From a virus (lineage: Duplodnaviria > Heunggongvirae > Uroviricota > Caudoviricetes), in the IMG/VR virus record IMGVR_UViG_3300036801_000212, positions 64,001 to 120,119 of that record: 56,119 nt of DNA; one strand, given 5' to 3'. A model generated the notes under the pieces. It was not told where the DNA came from. It worked only from the letters and a program-made list of their open reading frames with translations, and searched no databases. The position numbers were made by a program, and so were the translations under genes. Positions 44,745 to 56,119 of the stretch are shown one piece after another. Each line of letters opens with the position of its first letter. Position 1 is the stretch's first letter.

Positions 44745-45446
44745 TCAAACGTCAACTTTCCTCCGACACACATATAGTCGATCGTGCAGTCCAGCCCATT
44801 GCGGGATGTCCACCGATTCTATCTCTTCGAAGAGGGATTCAGTGCTGCAGCTATCGCAAGTTTCTTGACCTTCGTCATGCCAGCAGTTGTCACTCAATCC
44901 CAGAAGTGAATGCATCTTGTCGTCTCCGGTGCATCCGCCATTACCTTCGCCGATATAAATTATCGTATCGCCGGAGTAGAGTTCCACAACTTCATGCGTC
45001 CAGTCCTCGGAATAGCAGGGCCAACAGAGGAGTAGCGTACGATTTGGCGAACCGATAACCACGGTGTGATCACCAGTCAAGACCTCGGTGAAAGGTTCCG
45101 AAAGCGACCAACTGTCATCCCCGGGAGTCTTGTCGAACGCGAGCACATCAAGTCCGCGCTGGCGAAGAAGCGAAGCCCAATAACCCGCACCGGCACCGAT
45201 CTCAATCAGGCCAGTTGGGGAGTAGCGAATGATGGCATCCAAGGCTTTGTCATTCGGAATGGCCCAAGACCATGTCCGACGTTTTTCGTGCTGATGCTCA
45301 CCGTAATCTCGACATTCGATGCAGTATTCCCACGGCTGTCGTATATCTCCGCATAGACTCGGCATCGCGGAACCGTGACTCATCTGATGGTTGAGCATGC
45401 GTTCGTACTCGTCCAGATATGGGTTGTCTATTTGCTCAGTCAGCAC
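44745..45446 (-). CDS. class I SAM-dependent methyltransferase-like protein
   Basis: LIEIGAGAGYWA...VLAFD and LLLCWP motifs. Confidence 0.75.
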   Translation of the reverse strand: MLTEQIDNPYLDEYERMLNHQMSHGSAMPSLCGDIRQPWEYCIECRDYGEHQHEKRRTWSWAIPNDKALDAIIRYSPTGLIEIGAGAGYWASLLRQRGLDVLAFDKTPGDDSWSLSEPFTEVLTGDHTVVIGSPNRTLLLCWPCYSEDWTHEVVELYSGDTIIYIGEGNGGCTGDDKMHSLLGLSDNCWHDEGQETCDSCSTESLFEEIESVDIPQWAGLHDRLYVCRRKVDV

Positions 45447-45516
45447 TCCAGTTCAGCCTTCCGAATGTCGATCTCCGAGAAAATCTCGGACCACAGGTGC
45501 TCGAGGTCGACGTTAC

Positions 45517-46608
45517 TCATGATCTGACATCTCGCTCGAACGACGCGACGCCGCCAAGCCAGTCGCGGCGCTGTCGAACGACGCTGGTGCCCAGGGCCAC
45601 GCCGATGAACACCACGCCGAGGGAACCGACCAGCCACTCCGGCAGGTGCACGCCGTACAGCTTCAACAGCATCACCACGCCCAGGAGCAGAATGGCCCAA
45701 TGGGCGCCGTGTTCGAGGTACCGGTACTTGGCGAGGGTGCCGGTGCGGACGAGATGCACGGTCATGGACCGGACCCACATGGCGCCGGCTCCGAGACCGG
45801 CCATGATGACCAGGACGGCGGTAGTGATGGCGAACGCCCCGATCACCCCGTCGAACGAGAACGAGGCGTCCAGCACCTCCAGTCGGATGAACATGATGCC
45901 GGCAGCAGCACCGATCAGTACTTGCACTCTCTGCGTTTCACCCTCGTCGGGGTTGTCAAACGCGGCGCCGAACATGTCGAGGCCGACGTGCAGCAGCACC
46001 CCGATGATCGCGGCAACGAACACGGGAGTGCGCTGTCCGTCATCGACGGTGAAGAACGCGACCACCGCGACGGCGATCATGACGAAGATGGTGATGTTGT
46101 CGAATCGGCCCAGCGGGGCCAGACGCGACTCCAGCCAGCCGATCCAGTGGACGTCTTTCTCGGCGTCAAGGAAGTAGCTGACTCCGATCATGAGCAGGAA
46201 CGTGCCGCCGAACGCGCCGATCATCGGTCCGGCCTGCACCAGGTGCTGTGCGTACACGGCTGGCTGATGGACGGCCAGGTTGACGACGTCCCCGAAGGAC
46301 AGCCCGGCGGCGAGTTGCACGATGAAGATGGGCAGCGCGAACCGGACCACGAAGACGGCGACCAAGATGCCGGCGGTCATGAACGCCTTCTGCCAGACCG
46401 GGGACATGCGGGTGACCAGTTTCGAGTTGACGACAGCGTTGTCGAAGCTGAACGTCACCTCAAGGAGGGTCAGGATGACCGCGGTGAGTAGCGTCGCTGG
46501 GCCGGCCGCGACGGCGACAGCGGCCCAGGCGAAGACGGTGACGGCAGCGGAAGGGCCGTAGATGCCCCACAGGTTTACCCGGCTCCGCGCTGGGGCAGAA
46601 GCAGTCAC
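45517..46608 (-). CDS. TerC-like integral membrane protein (DUF475 type)
   Basis: LEVTFSFDNAVVN, LEVLDASFSFDGVIGAFAIT and YLEHGAHWAI motifs; GTG start overlaps the vWA stop. Confidence 0.85.
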   Translation of the reverse strand: MTASAPARSRVNLWGIYGPSAAVTVFAWAAVAVAAGPATLLTAVILTLLEVTFSFDNAVVNSKLVTRMSPVWQKAFMTAGILVAVFVVRFALPIFIVQLAAGLSFGDVVNLAVHQPAVYAQHLVQAGPMIGAFGGTFLLMIGVSYFLDAEKDVHWIGWLESRLAPLGRFDNITIFVMIAVAVVAFFTVDDGQRTPVFVAAIIGVLLHVGLDMFGAAFDNPDEGETQRVQVLIGAAAGIMFIRLEVLDASFSFDGVIGAFAITTAVLVIMAGLGAGAMWVRSMTVHLVRTGTLAKYRYLEHGAHWAILLLGVVMLLKLYGVHLPEWLVGSLGVVFIGVALGTSVVRQRRDWLGGVASFERDVRS

Positions 46609-47378
46609 GACAGCACGCCGGCCTTCGCCGCGGCGGCGACCCAGGAGTCCCACTCGTCGGCCATGGCGTCGGCGAACACCAGATCGGACACCGATGCGGG
46701 GTCGGCGAAGAACTGTGCGTTGACGTTGTCGAGTAGCCGGTTGTCGGGGCTCATGTTGTCAAGCTCATTGAGATAGGGGACGTCGCGGATGGCCAGGAAC
46801 TTCAGGAACACCGGGTAGCTCGCCAGCTTGCACACGATGTCGGTCGTCGCCGGCTGGGAGTTCGGGTTGCCGTCGGTCACAACCGCGCAGAAGATCGGCT
46901 CGGTGGTGGTCTCCGCCAGCTCCCGGACCGCGATGAGAGCCGATGCCAAATCGGTGGTGCCCATTCGCTCCGGCCGCCAAATCCGCTGGTTGACGACGCC
47001 GCGGTAGTTGTCGACGGTCACATCGACGGCGGGATGGACGCACGAGTCAAACGGGATCACGGGGACGGTGCCGTCCAGGTCGATCTGCAAGGCGAACCCC
47101 AACACCCGCTCCACGAGGGTCTGGACCTTGCCGTTGGCGTAATCGGCGCGCATCGACCCGGAGTGGTCGAGCGCCAACACAGCCTGCGCGCGAATCCCGG
47201 CCAGGCCCCGCTTGGACAGGGCGATACCGGCTTTGTCGGCGCGCTTGGCCAGGTCGATGTGTCCGGCGTCGCGGACCTTCGACAGATTGATCGCTGAGTT
47301 TCCGGTGGAATCCTTGATCAGGTTGACGGTCCGCGACGGACGGAAAACGTCACCGCCTTTACGATTGAACAAGCGCAT
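46605..47378 (-). CDS. vWA-domain protein (Ter-associated)
   Basis: MIDAS motif LALDHSGSM, GTTD, VVTDG; LDNVNAQF. Confidence 0.85.
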   Translation of the reverse strand: MRLFNRKGGDVFRPSRTVNLIKDSTGNSAINLSKVRDAGHIDLAKRADKAGIALSKRGLAGIRAQAVLALDHSGSMRADYANGKVQTLVERVLGFALQIDLDGTVPVIPFDSCVHPAVDVTVDNYRGVVNQRIWRPERMGTTDLASALIAVRELAETTTEPIFCAVVTDGNPNSQPATTDIVCKLASYPVFLKFLAIRDVPYLNELDNMSPDNRLLDNVNAQFFADPASVSDLVFADAMADEWDSWVAAAAKAGVLS

Positions 47379-47406
47379 GCCAGTTGCCTCTCGAATAGGG
47401 ATGGGA

Positions 47407-47988
47407 TCAGCCGATGTGGTACGCGGTTACGAGCCCCTGGAGTTCACTGGTGAAGCCATCACCGATGGCCCGGAAATTCCACGCCTGCCCGCGGCGGTAC
47501 AGCTTGCCGAACACCAGCGAGTTGACCCCGGCGTTGGTGTCCTCGGTGAGGTCGTAGCGGGCCAGCTCGGTATTGGTGGTCTCGTCGACAACGCGGACGA
47601 AAGCGTCCTCCACCAGCCCGAAGTTCTGGCCACCTCTCGCCTTGGCCTCGTGGATCGTCACCGCCACCACCAGTTCGGTAACGTCGGCCGGTACTCGTGC
47701 CAGGTCGATCAGGATTTGCTCGTCGTCGCCGTCGCCACCGCCGGTGAGGTTGTCGCCCTGATGCACGATCACGTCGCCCGGGGCCGCCATGTGGTTGTAG
47801 AAGACGAACCATTCGGGGCTCGCACACGCGCCCGAGGAGTTGAGTCCGATGATGGAAGCGTCGAGGTCGTAGGCGGGTCCGTCGGTACGACGGACGTCCC
47901 AACCCAATCCGATGCGGACCTTGGTGAGAGCGCCACCGGCTTCCTTGGACAGGTCCACCTTGCCGCCCTTGGACAGGTTGATCGCCAT
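47407..47988 (-). CDS. terD: TerD-family protein
   Basis: INLSKGGKVDL, GLGWD, DLDAS, FVFYN, GDNLTG.GDGDDEQI and WNFRAIG motifs; GAAGGG RBS before ATG 47988. Confidence 0.9.
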   Translation of the reverse strand: MAINLSKGGKVDLSKEAGGALTKVRIGLGWDVRRTDGPAYDLDASIIGLNSSGACASPEWFVFYNHMAAPGDVIVHQGDNLTGGGDGDDEQILIDLARVPADVTELVVAVTIHEAKARGGQNFGLVEDAFVRVVDETTNTELARYDLTEDTNAGVNSLVFGKLYRRGQAWNFRAIGDGFTSELQGLVTAYHIG

Positions 47989-48435
47989 GAGATTTCCCTT
48001 CGTGGGTTTACCGGTGATGACCACGCCTGTGGGGGCGGTGGCCAATGTCATGCCGATGTCACACAACCACGGGTGCAGCGGTGTGTCGGCCAGGTTGGAA
48101 AGTTCGTGGGTGTCGCGGTGGAGCCCAATGTCTGAGGTGCGGCAGATTCCGGTCGCTACCACAGAAATGCCGTTCCACTGGCCGACCTGCATCCAGTCAG
48201 TAGGGTCGACGGCCATGATGACCGCACCCCAATGGTTGGCCAGAGCGGTGGGAATGTAGGTGTCGCGGCCAGCCATCAAGTCGGTGGAGCGACCACCGGC
48301 CGTGCTGACGAACTGGCGGAGCAGGTACCAGCCTCGGTTGGTGACGATGAGCCGGTGAGCGGGAAGGTCGCTGGCGGTGAGTCCGAGGTCGGCCCGACTG
48401 CCGGGTGTCCAGTGCGTGACCACGTGTCGAAGCAT
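47989..48435 (-). CDS. in-frame N-terminal extension of TerD (possible fusion)
   Basis: 149 open codons in frame with terD, starting at an ATG. Confidence 0.35.
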
Positions 48436-48490
48436 ATCTGACTGAGTGGTACTGCGTCACTAATCTAGTCGGGTCATGTCGTGTAGAGTC

Positions 48491-48567
48491 GGCAAGGCAA
48501 GGCTTGGCAAGGCAGGGCGCGGCGTGGCGGGGCAAGGCGAGGCAGGGGAAGTACTGAGTGGCCAGCA
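48491..48567 (+). repeat. orphan GGC-NN pentamer unit (truncated)
   Basis: 11 perfect GGCNN pentamers then GGGAAGTACTGAGTGGCCAGCA; 48541-48567 is identical to 53210-53236. Confidence 0.9.
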
Positions 48568-48577
48568 CGGCACGAAC

Positions 48578-48855
48578 CAAGATCATGGGGCGGATTTTGG
48601 GGCAAACTGGGTTTCACGGTCCGACACGTTTTCGACACTCTCCGATGTAATCCGACTGCAGACGCTACTTATAGTTACCTCAATGCGACCAACCTGGGAC
48701 TTTACCCCTCCGTCGCGCTGACTCTTAATCAGCGGGTTCGGGGTTCGAGTCCCTGGCGGCGCACTCTAACTACATAGCTCTGACCAGCGGAAACGCCGAT
48801 TCTAAGATCATATCTCACTGGTCCGCCACAAGATCATGGGGCAAAAATGGGGCAG
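48578..48855. other. attP: core = 3' part of tRNA-Lys(CTT) at 48717-48764, flanked by arm-type repeats
   Basis: GCTGA-CTCTTAA-TCAGC anticodon arm plus T arm GTTCGAGTCC, with no acceptor 5' strand or D arm. CAAGATCATGGGGC at 48578 and 48829, with extra TGGGGCA copies. Adjacent to int. Confidence 0.85.
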
Positions 48856-49993
48856 GTGGGTTGCGACTGCCAGCCAGCGCGGCGCGAACCTCATCGTGAC
48901 CGTCGTCCTGAAGATGTGAGTACCTTTGAGTCGTCGTGATCGACTCGTGGCCAAGCAGATATTGCACTCGCGCCAGGGAGACGCCGGCGGTGACCAGACG
49001 GCTGGCGTAGGTATGTCGACAGTCGTGCACCCGGGCGTGGCCCACCTCTGCTCGAGCCAGGGCACGCTTCCAGGTGACGTTGTTGAAGTTGTGCGGATCA
49101 ATCACCGCACCCTTCGGGCCGACCACGACAAGCTCTGATCGGCACACTGACCCTTTCGCGTGAGTGAAGCCACACTTCCTCGCCGAATTACTACTCTGCA
49201 GTAGTACTGTGTGTAGATGCCTGGACATCGGGATGGTCCTACGTTTTTTTCCCTTGGGGTAGGACTCGATGACCCTGTCGTACTGGTTCCATTTCTCGAC
49301 CACGTCGATAGTCCCCCGGTCGAAGTCGAGCCGATGCCGATGCAGTCCCACCGCTTCCCCCAGGCGCAGCCCGGTCTCCAGCAGGATGGTGGTCAGTACC
49401 CAGTACGGCCCGGACATCCGCGCGAGGATGAGTTCGACCTCATCGGCGGTGAAGTATCTTTCCGGCGCCGGAGGAAGGGTCGGCAAGGTGACCGCGTAGC
49501 ACGGAGAGTGATCAATGACGTTGGCCCGGATCGCGTCCTTCATTGACCGACTGAGCTGGTAGTAACACTGCCTCACCGTGGACGCGGAAAGATTCGGGCT
49601 CTTGGCGAGTTTGTTGATCCACACCTGGATGTCGGCATGTTCGATTTCGTTGAGCGGGACATCTTTCCAGCGGGGCTTGACATGCTGGTCCCTGAGGGTA
49701 ACCTGAGAACGCATGGTGCCGGCCTCCAGACTTCGGGTGGGCCACCATCGATCGCACCAATCCCCCCAGCGCATCCGGCCCTTGGACGGGTCGCGTCTGC
49801 TTCCCTCGATGACTTTTTGTTCCTGGGCACTGGCCCAGCGGTAGGCGCCTCGTTTGTGAACGAAAACCTGGGAGCGCTTGCTGCCATCGGCCAAACGGTA
49901 GATGCCCCGAACTTTCACTATCCCGGTCTTATCCGGGGGCAAATCTTCGGTCCAGGCCATGGCTTGATCCTTTCGCGACAGAGCGGCCGGCAT
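48815..49993 (-). CDS. int: tyrosine integrase
   Basis: TGLRLGE, PKGKKRR, HDCRHTYA, LGHESITTTQRY catalytic motifs. Confidence 0.95.
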   Translation of the reverse strand: MPAALSRKDQAMAWTEDLPPDKTGIVKVRGIYRLADGSKRSQVFVHKRGAYRWASAQEQKVIEGSRRDPSKGRMRWGDWCDRWWPTRSLEAGTMRSQVTLRDQHVKPRWKDVPLNEIEHADIQVWINKLAKSPNLSASTVRQCYYQLSRSMKDAIRANVIDHSPCYAVTLPTLPPAPERYFTADEVELILARMSGPYWVLTTILLETGLRLGEAVGLHRHRLDFDRGTIDVVEKWNQYDRVIESYPKGKKRRTIPMSRHLHTVLLQSSNSARKCGFTHAKGSVCRSELVVVGPKGAVIDPHNFNNVTWKRALARAEVGHARVHDCRHTYASRLVTAGVSLARVQYLLGHESITTTQRYSHLQDDGHDEVRAALAGSRNPPAPFLPHDLVADQ

Positions 49994-51771: not shown

Positions 51772-51905
51772 AATGGCGGTCGCAATCACCGACGAGCTAC
51801 CCCAGCGAGCTGACTGCTATTGAAGGCGCGAGAACTCACCGACAAAATCAAGATCGCGATTGACGACACCTGACAGTTGACACACCTCAAGGAAGGGCTA
51901 GGAAG

Positions 51906-52487
51906 ATGATCATTAATCTGACCGGCAGCACCCCGCTAATGATGCACAGCAGCAGACTGGCGGACTCTGACGATTTCTTTACCAGAGCCATCGCCAAGAT
52001 CGTGGCCAAGCGCACCAACATGACCGACGATGACCGGCTTGAGAAGTCTCGACTGCAGTTCGCCGGCGGTCTGTACCACGACGAAGAAATCGGCCCCTAC
52101 CTCCCCGGACCGAACCTGGTTCGGTCTCTGCGGACTGCCGCACACCTGGTCAAGCACAACAAGGGTGGCGGGGAGATTGAGCGGGGATTCATTCTCCTCT
52201 CGGAGCGCGCACCCCTGGACTACGCGGGGCCTCGCGCCCTCGACGATCTCTGGAATGAAGGCGAATCCAAGTTCGTCGACCGCCGCATGGTGAAGATCGG
52301 TAAGTCGACCGTGTCCACCACTAGGCCGATTTTCGTCAACTGGGGGGCCCAGTTTGAGTTCGAACTGGACCCGAGCGAGATCGACGTCGAGGACTTCCAG
52401 GCCTATGCCGAGAAGTCCGGCAAGGTCGGGGTCGGTGACGCCCGCAAGATTGGGTACGGCCGATTCTCTGTCAAGATCGCCGACTAA
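51906..52487 (+). CDS. stand-alone Cas7/RAMP-like protein (Vipr-like)
   Basis: N-terminal INLTGSTPLMMH strand, YLPGPNL.RSL..AA helix and C-terminal Gly-rich loop GVGDARKIGYGRF; AAGGAAGG RBS; upstream of the GGCNN array. Confidence 0.75.
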   Translation: MIINLTGSTPLMMHSSRLADSDDFFTRAIAKIVAKRTNMTDDDRLEKSRLQFAGGLYHDEEIGPYLPGPNLVRSLRTAAHLVKHNKGGGEIERGFILLSERAPLDYAGPRALDDLWNEGESKFVDRRMVKIGKSTVSTTRPIFVNWGAQFEFELDPSEIDVEDFQAYAEKSGKVGVGDARKIGYGRFSVKIAD

Positions 52488-52510: not shown

Positions 52511-53041
52511 ATGGCGTTGAGTCCTTTTTCTCCCGCTGACGGAAAAGTGTCTCGGCTGCGACACTGTTACGGCCTCGTGGCTTCACGCGAAGCTGGCGAT
52601 GTGATTTCAGTTGAAGAGGTGATGGAGCTTTGCGACTGTGATCGGCCTACCGCGATTCAGGCCATGTGGAGTGTGAAGGCTCCCCTTGAGCGGGATGGTC
52701 TCAACTCGCTTGAGATCATCCGTCCCGGGGGTGGTGGCCGGGCATACGGCTGGCGCATATTGGATCGAGGCGTTCGCAATCTTGATGTTGTGGATGCGCG
52801 GGTTGCTAAGTCGCGCCGTGCTCAGGTTCGGGTGAGCCGTCTGATTAACAACACCGAGCGTGACCGTCTTGATCAGGTCGGTCGGATGCGCTACGACCGG
52901 CTGCAGTCGCACGCGTTGCGGGCCGCGGTGCTCTACGAGCGGAGGCCGTCGAGTTTGGCGGATTTACAGCGCAAGGCGGAGGAGCAGCGCCGCAAGCAGT
53001 TGCCTGGGCGTGATCCGGATGACGGCTCGAGAACGGCCTGA
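52511..53041 (+). CDS. accessory protein between the RAMP gene and the array
   Basis: GGAG RBS; possible winged-HTH N-terminus (SVEEVMELCDCDRPTA...YGWRI); basic helical C-terminus. Confidence 0.7.
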   Translation: MALSPFSPADGKVSRLRHCYGLVASREAGDVISVEEVMELCDCDRPTAIQAMWSVKAPLERDGLNSLEIIRPGGGGRAYGWRILDRGVRNLDVVDARVAKSRRAQVRVSRLINNTERDRLDQVGRMRYDRLQSHALRAAVLYERRPSSLADLQRKAEEQRRKQLPGRDPDDGSRTA

Positions 53042-53051
53042 GGACTTTCAA

Positions 53052-53598
53052 GGCGCGGCGCGGCATGGCGCGGCAAGGCGTGGCTAGGCGAGGCGAGGGA
53101 AAGCAGATGGGCGGATGGCATACACCCAGGTTCGAGTCTTGGGCGCCCACGCACGGCGTGGCATGGCATGGCGGGGCATGGCTGGGCTTGGCGTGGCAGG
53201 GCCGGGCAGGGCAGGGGAAGTACTGAGTGGCCAGCAGGCACCGACGTGCGAGCCGTCGGCACTCACGCACGGCGCGGCTCGGCACGGCGTGGCCGGGCAG
53301 GGCTGGGCAAGGCGTGGCGAGGGATAGCTGGAGAGCGGACGGCATACATCGAGGTTCGGGTCCTCGACGCTCACGCACGGCTAGGCAAGGCCCGGCTCGG
53401 CTGGGCATGGCTGGGCAAGGCTAGTCAGGGCGAGGGAAGTTCGGCGGGTGAACGGCATACACCGCGGTTCGAGTCTGCGGCACCCACGCACGGCGTGGCA
53501 TGGCACGGCGGGGCCCGGCACGGCGAGGCAAAGCGAGGCGAGGGAAGCAGATGGGTGAATGGCATGCACTCGGGTTCGAGCCCCGAGCACCCACGCAA
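53052..53598 (+). ncRNA. array of five GGC-NN repeat RNAs with tRNA-minihelix-like tails
   Basis: Units start at 53052, 53155, 53271, 53379 and 53492 with 9, 12, 10, 11 and 10 pentamers. Each is followed by GGGA(A/T), a two-helix covarying tail and CGCA(C/A). Confidence 0.85.
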
Positions 53599-53610
53599 CA
53601 AACAAGTGAA

Positions 53611-55372: not shown

Positions 55373-55879
55373 TTGCCACACCGTGAACCGAACCCCGGAT
55401 TCGATAGGGGCTATTTCGGGATTGCCGTCTATCAGCCGAAGACCGAGGTCAACATCGGAAGTCTCTGGAGATCAGCTTCTGCTTTCGGAGCTGCTTTTAT
55501 CGCCACCGTAGGGAGGCGTTACCCAACTCGGCAAGCATCAGACACGACTTACGCCTCGAAGTACATCCCGTTATTTAACTTCCCGACCATGGATGATCTA
55601 CTAGGACATCTCCCCAATTCCTGTCCTCTAGTGGGTGTCGAGCTCGACACCCGAGCGAAGAGTTTGAACACATATCATCATCGGGAACGAGCGCTGTATT
55701 TGCTTGGCGCGGAAGATAGAGGTATACCTCCGAAGGTTTTGGACATGTGTCACGATTTGGTGCAGATTCCCACCGTGACACCGTGGTCCATCAACTTAGC
55801 CTGCGCTGGGTCGATTCTTCTTGCGAGCCGCCACATGTCCCACCTTCTCCTAAAGACCGCAATGAACGAGGAGGCATAG
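55373..55879 (+). CDS. SpoU/TrmH-family RNA methyltransferase
   Basis: NIGSLWRSA.AFG, LVGVE, LLGAEDRGI and SINLA SPOUT motifs; AAGGAG RBS. Confidence 0.9.
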   Translation: MPHREPNPGFDRGYFGIAVYQPKTEVNIGSLWRSASAFGAAFIATVGRRYPTRQASDTTYASKYIPLFNFPTMDDLLGHLPNSCPLVGVELDTRAKSLNTYHHRERALYLLGAEDRGIPPKVLDMCHDLVQIPTVTPWSINLACAGSILLASRHMSHLLLKTAMNEEA

Positions 55880-55883
55880 CCCC

Positions 55884-56119
55884 ATGGCTGAATGTACTGT
55901 CCGAACGCAGGCTGAGCTGGACCGTGCAGTCGCAGACCGGATCGAACGGATTGAGATTCGCTCCGACTCTGGGGTGTGGATCGACGTCACCTCAAGCGAC
56001 TCGTCCACGGTGACGGCCTACGACTCGTCCACGGTGAGGGCCTACGGCTCGTCCACGGTGACGGCCTGCGGCTCGTCCACGGTGACGGCCTACGACTCGT
56101 CCACGGTGACGGCCTACGG
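55884..56119 (+). CDS. octapeptide-repeat (beta-solenoid) protein, truncated by the window end
   Basis: GGAGG RBS; five 24-bp repeats from 55998 encoding (D/G)SSTV(T/R)A(Y/C). Confidence 0.8.
   Translation, partial: MAECTVRTQAELDRAVADRIERIEIRSDSGVWIDVTSSDSSTVTAYDSSTVRAYGSSTVTACGSSTVTAYDSSTVTAY

Follow-up and report, generated by a model that had tools for sequence, protein, structure and literature searches.

By its repeat grammar and homology, the isolated block of GGC-NN pentamers beside the predicted attP of this phage is a vrRNA gene of the phage's own VIPR system, i.e. a gene of a kind already published, and on balance we regard the unit as probably still a working guide acting in trans, which appears more likely to us than a young relic. 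The assignment as a vrRNA gene follows from the identity of a neighbouring ORF as Vipr, from the published grammar of such RNAs and from homology to the array units of the same genome. The source record in IMG/VR comprises 120,119 bases, of which the stretch analysed here, referred to as the window, is the right-hand 56 kb (56,119 nucleotides); positions are those of the window unless stated otherwise (Table 1).

VIPR is a CRISPR-like, RNA-guided DNA-silencing system described in 2026, whose vrRNAs are defined as having 9-16 GGY-NN repeats and, behind them, a conserved 3' tail; the NN pairs read double-stranded DNA and leave out one base after every two (bioRxiv 10.64898/2026.04.26.720920). 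Cryo-EM of the system of Escherichia phage SUSP1 revealed one Vipr protomer per repeat, held through the GGY motifs, with the tail seen only as a 3' cap beside which DNA unwinding starts (bioRxiv 10.64898/2026.04.26.720927), and according to Lopez et al. the consensus tail is what makes a vrRNA competent (bioRxiv 10.64898/2026.10.15.759431). The idea of a guide RNA with a gapped code is thus not new, being contained in both bioRxiv 10.64898/2026.04.26.720920 and 10.64898/2026.10.15.759431.

Table 1. Features around the orphan vrRNA unit, with hairpin-less units of related VIPR loci in the last row.
Feature	Position	Strand	Evidence or remark
TerD-domain gene, first of leftward operon	47407..48435	-	PF02342 E 1.7e-66
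Weak candidate promoter	48438..48466	+	CTGACT 48438-48443, 17-nt spacer, TAATCT 48461-48466; below consensus-scan threshold
Guide tract of orphan vrRNA unit	48491..48545	+	11 GGC-NN pentamers; grammar as published for vrRNAs
Tail remnant	48546..48576	+	GGGAAGTA motif, acceptor-like stem 5' strand (TGAGTG), linker; homology to A2 and B1
Two tandem arm-type repeats, P arm of attP	48578..48606	+	CAAGATCATGGGGC and GATTTTGGGGCAAA
attP core, tRNA-Lys(CUU)-like 3' half (anticodon arm, T-arm, 3' acceptor strand)	~48717..48763	+	by eye
Tyrosine integrase	48815..49993	-	PF00589 E 2.7e-25; phrog_1 E 1.6e-59
Arm-type repeat, P' side	48829..48845	+	repeat comparison
vipr, Vipr (RAMP-like) protein, candidate loader of the guide in trans	51906..52487	+	PDB 36pp_D; phrog_4652
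Accessory (vap-like) gene of the VIPR operon	52511..53041	+	no family match; role by position only
Array A, five vrRNA units, all with a tRNA-like minihelix at the end	53052..53600	+	unit 2 (A2) = 53155-53269
Hairpin-less units in related loci	L008 60-104 and 1281-1340; L007 both units; L012 186-230; L015 7792-7836; L148 11159-11208		

Identification of the orphan unit as a vrRNA gene

Direct reading of the tract gave GGCAA GGCAA GGCTT GGCAA GGCAG GGCGC GGCGT GGCGG GGCAA GGCGA GGCAG, with GGC exact in 11/11 pentamers, and confirmed the NN string AA AA TT AA AG GC GT GG AA GA AG given by an earlier, sequence-only reading of this DNA. Eight GGC-NN pentamers in a row were counted 17 times across the window, each time within the orphan or array A, and 0 times in 100 shuffles. 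The NN string had been called unique and indeed recurs in none of the 10 further units of the genome; its last two pairs (GA, AG) are semi-conserved across the whole set of 11 and could be part of the handle. The orphan agrees with the definition of a vrRNA in these respects: its 11 tandem GGY-NN pentamers lie within the range of 9-16, GGY is conserved and NN hypervariable among the paralogues, and a cognate Vipr is available from the same genome.

This Vipr is the product described in the sequence-only reading as a RAMP protein. The ORF of 193 residues matched the PDB entry of the 'SUSP1 Vipr protein' (36pp_D) with an E of 9e-17, the match covering residues 3-191 and hence almost the whole length of the ORF product, and homologues with approximately 41-43% identity are encoded by Gordonia phage Trine and Mycobacterium phage LittleE (40.6% for the latter). 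An RNA of 11 triplets for a TRAP-like ring protein had also been considered, and was dropped when the neighbouring ORF matched a solved Vipr. Single-protein searches with the integrase and with Vipr revealed no close relatives of the phage among the records covered, and a pattern search for relatives with the tail variant of the orphan gave only a chance match inside a coding region. At gathering score, Rfam showed no match in the window, with only sub-threshold chance matches near the orphan.

The Vipr operon and two vrRNA arrays

The orphan lies on the same strand as vipr, the vap-like gene and array A. The stretch just upstream of vipr (51856-51890), which faces a divergent HTH repressor-like gene, contains repeats of TTGACGACACCT and TTGACACACCT 8 bp apart; these repeats could be a promoter or operator pair for the VIPR operon.

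The orphan is not the only unit outside array A when the whole genome is considered: a second array, B, of five units with 8-17 pentamers each is located outside the window at genome positions 56767-57311 (-) (L003:1068-1612), 59 kb away from vipr, and the genome has no detectable second copy of vipr. The tails of arrays A and B match almost base for base in a different order (B1 = A2, B3 = A3, B4 = A4, B5 ~ A1), and their guides are unrelated. The tail variant that the orphan has in common with A2 is also that of B1 and thus occurs at three loci, each time with an unrelated guide. Shared tail variants, changed order and unrelated guides together indicate that units are duplicated and moved and that guides turn over while tails stay fixed, and the occurrence of one tail variant at three loci and the reordering between A and B fit the earlier proposal that units spread by recombination. 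One or two non-GGC triplets interrupt 5/10 array units, and the orphan is more regular than those.

Tail remnant and breakpoint

The last pentamer of the orphan together with GGGAAGTACTGAGTGGCCAGCA (48541-48567) is identical to 53210-53236 of array unit 2, as had been noted for 27 nt, and the homology can be followed past a 1-nt indel through GGCAC to 48573, possibly 48576, for 33 nt in all. It ends where the T-stem of the tRNA-like minihelix should begin; in array units the T-stem is the next element, and in the orphan it is CAAGATCATGGGGC. The T-arm, present in 5/5 units of array A, is absent here, in agreement with the sequence-only reading, so that the orphan tail consists of the first 27-33 nt, including the clade-wide GGGAAGTA, and lacks both the hairpin and the 3' acceptor strand. 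The gap of 10 bp previously given between the unit and the arm-type site shrinks to 1-4 bp once the extended homology is counted. A stray 3' half of the minihelix, which would have marked an insertion, was found nowhere else in the window, including the region upstream of vipr. A 9-nt direct repeat flanking the tract, ACTGAGTGG, was no better than those in shuffled sequences and was discarded.

The attP site and its surroundings

The site next to the orphan combines a core resembling a tRNA 3' fragment with repeats to either side of it and a neighbouring integrase gene. CAAGATCATGGGGC at 48578-48591 recurs exactly at 48829-48842, and a third, partial copy occupies 48593-48606. ARAGORN detected no tRNA genes in the window, and the core was called by neither ARAGORN nor Rfam. 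Since there is no complete tRNA and arm-type repeats flank the core on both sides, the site is read as attP, and by these features it is of the tRNA-targeting tyrosine-integrase type. The tRNA-type att cores of small Gordonia phages match this core with 90-96% identity, which hints at a Gordonia-like or related host. A slightly longer segment, 48717-48775, matches part of the repressor genes of GRU3, GMA5, Emperor and other small Gordonia phages, likewise with 90-96% identity; in these phages, attP probably lies within the repressor gene.

Between the orphan and vipr, 3.3 kb are occupied on the opposite strand by attP, the integrase, a 93-codon ORF and the HTH repressor-like gene. If this attP is used, it follows that the orphan and the vipr gene end up at opposite prophage ends, as had been predicted: the orphan would lie at one extreme end and vipr about 3 kb from the other.

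On its other side, the orphan lies 55 bp from the start codon of the TerD gene, which has the divergent orientation. The TerD-domain, vWA/TerF-like and TerC/DUF475 genes at 45400-48435 form an island of 64% GC in a genome with 50-60% GC elsewhere, and the leftward six-gene operon goes on from these Ter genes to a methyltransferase-like gene, a metallophosphoesterase and DUF7873. The orphan thus sits at the seam between the Ter island of 64% GC and the integrase module of 60% GC. At the far right of the window, a SpoU-type RNA methylase gene (55373-55879) is followed by five copies of a 24-nt tandem repeat (55997-56118, 93% matches) that run into the record end, where the assembly probably broke.

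Comparison with known VIPR systems

The Type II VIPR system of SUSP1 comprises Vipr, Vap1 and four vrRNAs, one upstream and three downstream of the operon (bioRxiv 10.64898/2026.04.26.720920). The present locus resembles it in the homologous Vipr (E 9e-17), in the two-gene operon followed by an array, in the 9-16 GGY-NN repeats and in having one guide apart from the array, upstream and on the same strand. In contrast, the SUSP1 tail is a pseudoknot, whereas the tails here are tRNA-like minihelices and the orphan is without that part; here, 3.3 kb of opposite-strand attP, integrase and repressor-like genes separate orphan and vipr; and SUSP1 is lytic on E. coli, whereas the present phage is of temperate type with relatives among actinophages.

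As a single vrRNA gene away from an array, the orphan also recalls the solo vrRNAs of F5 satellites and of VIPR-null phages of the SUSP1 family, which work in trans, or are proposed to do so, on Vipr produced elsewhere (bioRxiv 10.64898/2026.10.15.759431). However, solo vrRNAs in the sense of Lopez et al. 2026 are defined by the absence of Vipr from the contig or from the surrounding 20 kb, and the orphan is not one of them, with vipr 3.4 kb away on the same strand. Solo vrRNAs further keep the full consensus tail, whereas the orphan is truncated, and their targets are known (REP elements, vipr genes), whereas none was found for the orphan.

A further counterpart is the VIPR locus of LittleE (JF937101.1; 8660-8910 and 10150-10470), whose genes are annotated only as hypothetical proteins. 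Its operon of gp34 (Vipr-like) and gp33 lies between tape-measure and minor-tail genes and is accompanied by five vrRNA units with tRNA-like minihelix tails, two upstream and three downstream of vipr. Unlike in the present phage, no LittleE unit lies more than 0.5 kb from gp34 and gp33; all are embedded in the tail-gene block, and none lies beside attP or is truncated by another module. The gp35 CDS annotated in LittleE overlaps the upstream vrRNA units in antisense and is unlikely to be a real gene. In Trine (MH271318.1, 9565-9840), gp41 is the Vipr homologue; downstream of it come a minihelix, a single intact vrRNA and then a second unit with a decayed GGC frame, and the annotated start of gp40 overlaps these RNA units. 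A related phage has an array, at L012:230-2000 (IMGVR_UViG_3300035670_012729), whose vrRNA units are long (18-23 pentamers) and carry tRNA-like tails; its final unit is hairpin-less and is followed by a tandem series of at least six small paralogous genes (MTEPDW..APSWAQWF..), and not by vipr.

The tRNA-like modules are also comparable with the hammerhead-interspersed arrays of types I and V VIPR, in which a structured RNA module between units cuts the array into single guides (bioRxiv 10.64898/2026.04.26.720920). Self-cleaving ribozymes do this there, whereas the tRNA mimic found here would presumably recruit host tRNA-processing enzymes. It is by analogy with these hammerhead ribozymes, which separate units in other VIPR types, that we read the tRNA-like module as punctuation.

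Target searches

The gapped-pattern target search that had been suggested as a check on the orphan was run on the phage's own genome, IMG/VR, GTDB genomes, metagenomes and related VIPR loci, and the outcome was at chance level throughout. The best match of the guide in its own genome covered 16/22 NN bases, the level of shuffled guides, and no self-target at >=80% NN was found in that genome, neighbouring genes included, which agrees with the published absence of self-targets for real guides. The notion that the guide spells the gene next door did not hold when the neighbouring genes were tested. In IMG/VR, an exact search with NN 1-9 gave one chance match, in a phage with 27% GC, and one with NN 3-11 gave no match. 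Exact 9-NN searches yielded 34 scattered matches in GTDB genomes, 0 of them in actinobacteria, and 83 stretches in metagenomes with no convincing match extension; the related VIPR loci held no target of the orphan guide. As the collection scans were exact and allowed no mismatch, a target matching at 80-95% would be missed by them.

Working guide or relic

The sequence-only reading had presented the orphan as either a trans-acting guide or a relic. Sequence alone cannot decide between the two, and the evidence collected here leans to the guide. Compared with A2, all 55/55 constrained positions of the orphan are identical (33 GGC and 22 tail bases), while only 9/22 NN bases agree (Fisher p = 2.7e-9). 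Arrays A and B differ from each other in the same way, with constrained positions kept and NN variable, and neutral point decay of a dead copy cannot be the source of such a pattern. What a truly decayed unit looks like is illustrated, by contrast, by the second unit of Trine, which has lost about half of its GGC triplets and kept its tail.

That every unit of the phage's own arrays carries the minihelix favours a relic. Hairpin-less units are common in related VIPR loci (Table 1), where they end in GG(G)AAGTA followed by an RBS and gene or by a terminator, and the last unit of the LittleE array likewise has no minihelix and ends at a terminator. GGGAAGTAC is kept in the orphan. From these comparisons, the T-arm looks dispensable for a guide. 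The way in which SUSP1 Vipr protomers assemble on the GGY motifs, with the tail visible only as a cap, likewise favours function. Units upstream of vipr are the rule in relatives, as seen for the two of LittleE and in L008, L011 and L015.

With the same observations, the orphan could instead be a young dead relic, a possibility that we hold to be real and of lower probability. A unit of an older array or of an upstream position would then have been cut through its tail by the incoming attP-integrase module or by the Ter island, leaving a guide that is no longer made or no longer matured and that has had too little time to decay. Truncation within 1-4 bp of the outermost arm-type site is what such an event predicts, and the seam of two mosaic modules of distinct composition is a place where a leftover is expected. 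The distance to vipr is also uncommon, given that all units in 11 related loci with 10-kb flanks lie within approximately 2 kb of vipr. At consensus thresholds, neither a promoter nor a terminator was detected at the orphan; patterns such as CTGACT-17-TAATCT, the weak candidate of Table 1, are common by chance, and a second TANNNT (TAGAGT) lies at 48484-48489. The orphan with its downstream 230 nt folds no better than shuffles (z = 0.31), from which we conclude that the lost 3' structure has not been replaced, and the target searches were likewise empty. The capping role of the structured SUSP1 tail, with DNA unwinding beginning beside it, and the weight that Lopez et al. place on the consensus tail also count against function, as does the lack of a stray minihelix half in the window. 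Against a relic speak the 11/11 GGC triplets and 27/27 tail bases that are intact next to a guide unrelated to that of any paralogue, and for this reason a relic would have to be very recent or derived by recombination from an unseen array. Its greater regularity than 5/10 array units and the normality of hairpin-less units in relatives argue in the same direction.

It is very unlikely that the tract acts as DNA, either within the P arm of attP through intasome spacing or bending, or within the promoter or leader region of the leftward operon headed by TerD. It is true that 33 bp separate the tract from the arm-type repeats, that the start codon of TerD is 55 bp distant and that the six-gene operon needs a promoter somewhere in 48436-48700; however, tract and tail are homologous to RNA genes of a known system, nothing similar is found beside the P' arm, and a period of 5 bp, being half a helical turn, gives no net bend. 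We give still less weight to the idea that the repeat-tail junction is kept as bait for anti-VIPR guides of rival phages. Lopez et al. predict vrRNA-targeting vrRNAs with footprints across this junction (bioRxiv 10.64898/2026.10.15.759431), and the junction is preserved exactly in the orphan, but no guide matching it was found in the related VIPR loci analysed, and the idea, being pure conjecture, adds nothing beyond the two main readings.

Proposed function and history

Repeat grammar, homology with its breakpoint, the identity of Vipr and the comparative pattern are demonstrated by the present analysis, and for the working guide we infer transcription, loading, target and history as follows. 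The orphan would be transcribed rightwards from its own weak promoter, located in the 55-bp gap after the TerD-domain gene, and each of its 11 GGC triplets would be bound by one Vipr protomer encoded by vipr at a distance of 3.4 kb. In reading a DNA target, the NN pairs would pass over one base after every two, and the outcome may be silencing of a gene of a competing mobile element. The ancestor of the orphan was presumably a unit with the same tRNA-like tail as A2 and B1, whose T-arm and everything beyond were replaced by the integration module with its arm-type sites, attP core and integrase. A likely history is that of a former 'upstream vrRNA' which was later parted from vipr by the integration and immunity cassette and lost the end of its tail in the process. 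The lost part may be the punctuation that lets tRNA-processing enzymes cut arrays, which a lone unit could do without.

An unlikely variant of the working guide, slightly more probable in our view than a role as DNA, is one whose 3' end depends on the integration state. In the free phage genome, the orphan transcript would run through attP into the integrase gene in antisense, whereas in the prophage, with the orphan at attR, it would pass through the tRNA-Lys fragment into host DNA and stop at the terminator of the host tRNA gene. If true, the guide would be matured only, or differently, in lysogens, as an RNA counterpart of integration-dependent immunity, and the tRNA-like module would not be needed for Vipr loading.

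Implications

One phage can spread 11 guides over three loci, namely the orphan, array A and array B, the last at a distance of 59 kb. Mycobacterium phage LittleE and Gordonia phage Trine can be cultivated and carry the same system, which is thus amenable to bench tests; the practical gain is small but real. The orphan is mainly of interest for what it may reveal about the vrRNA tail of actinophages, namely which part of it can be dispensed with. If it works, it represents a natural deletion experiment on actinophage VIPR guides, in which the tRNA-like module would only punctuate arrays, while the GGC repeats and the short GGGAAGTA motif would suffice for a guide.
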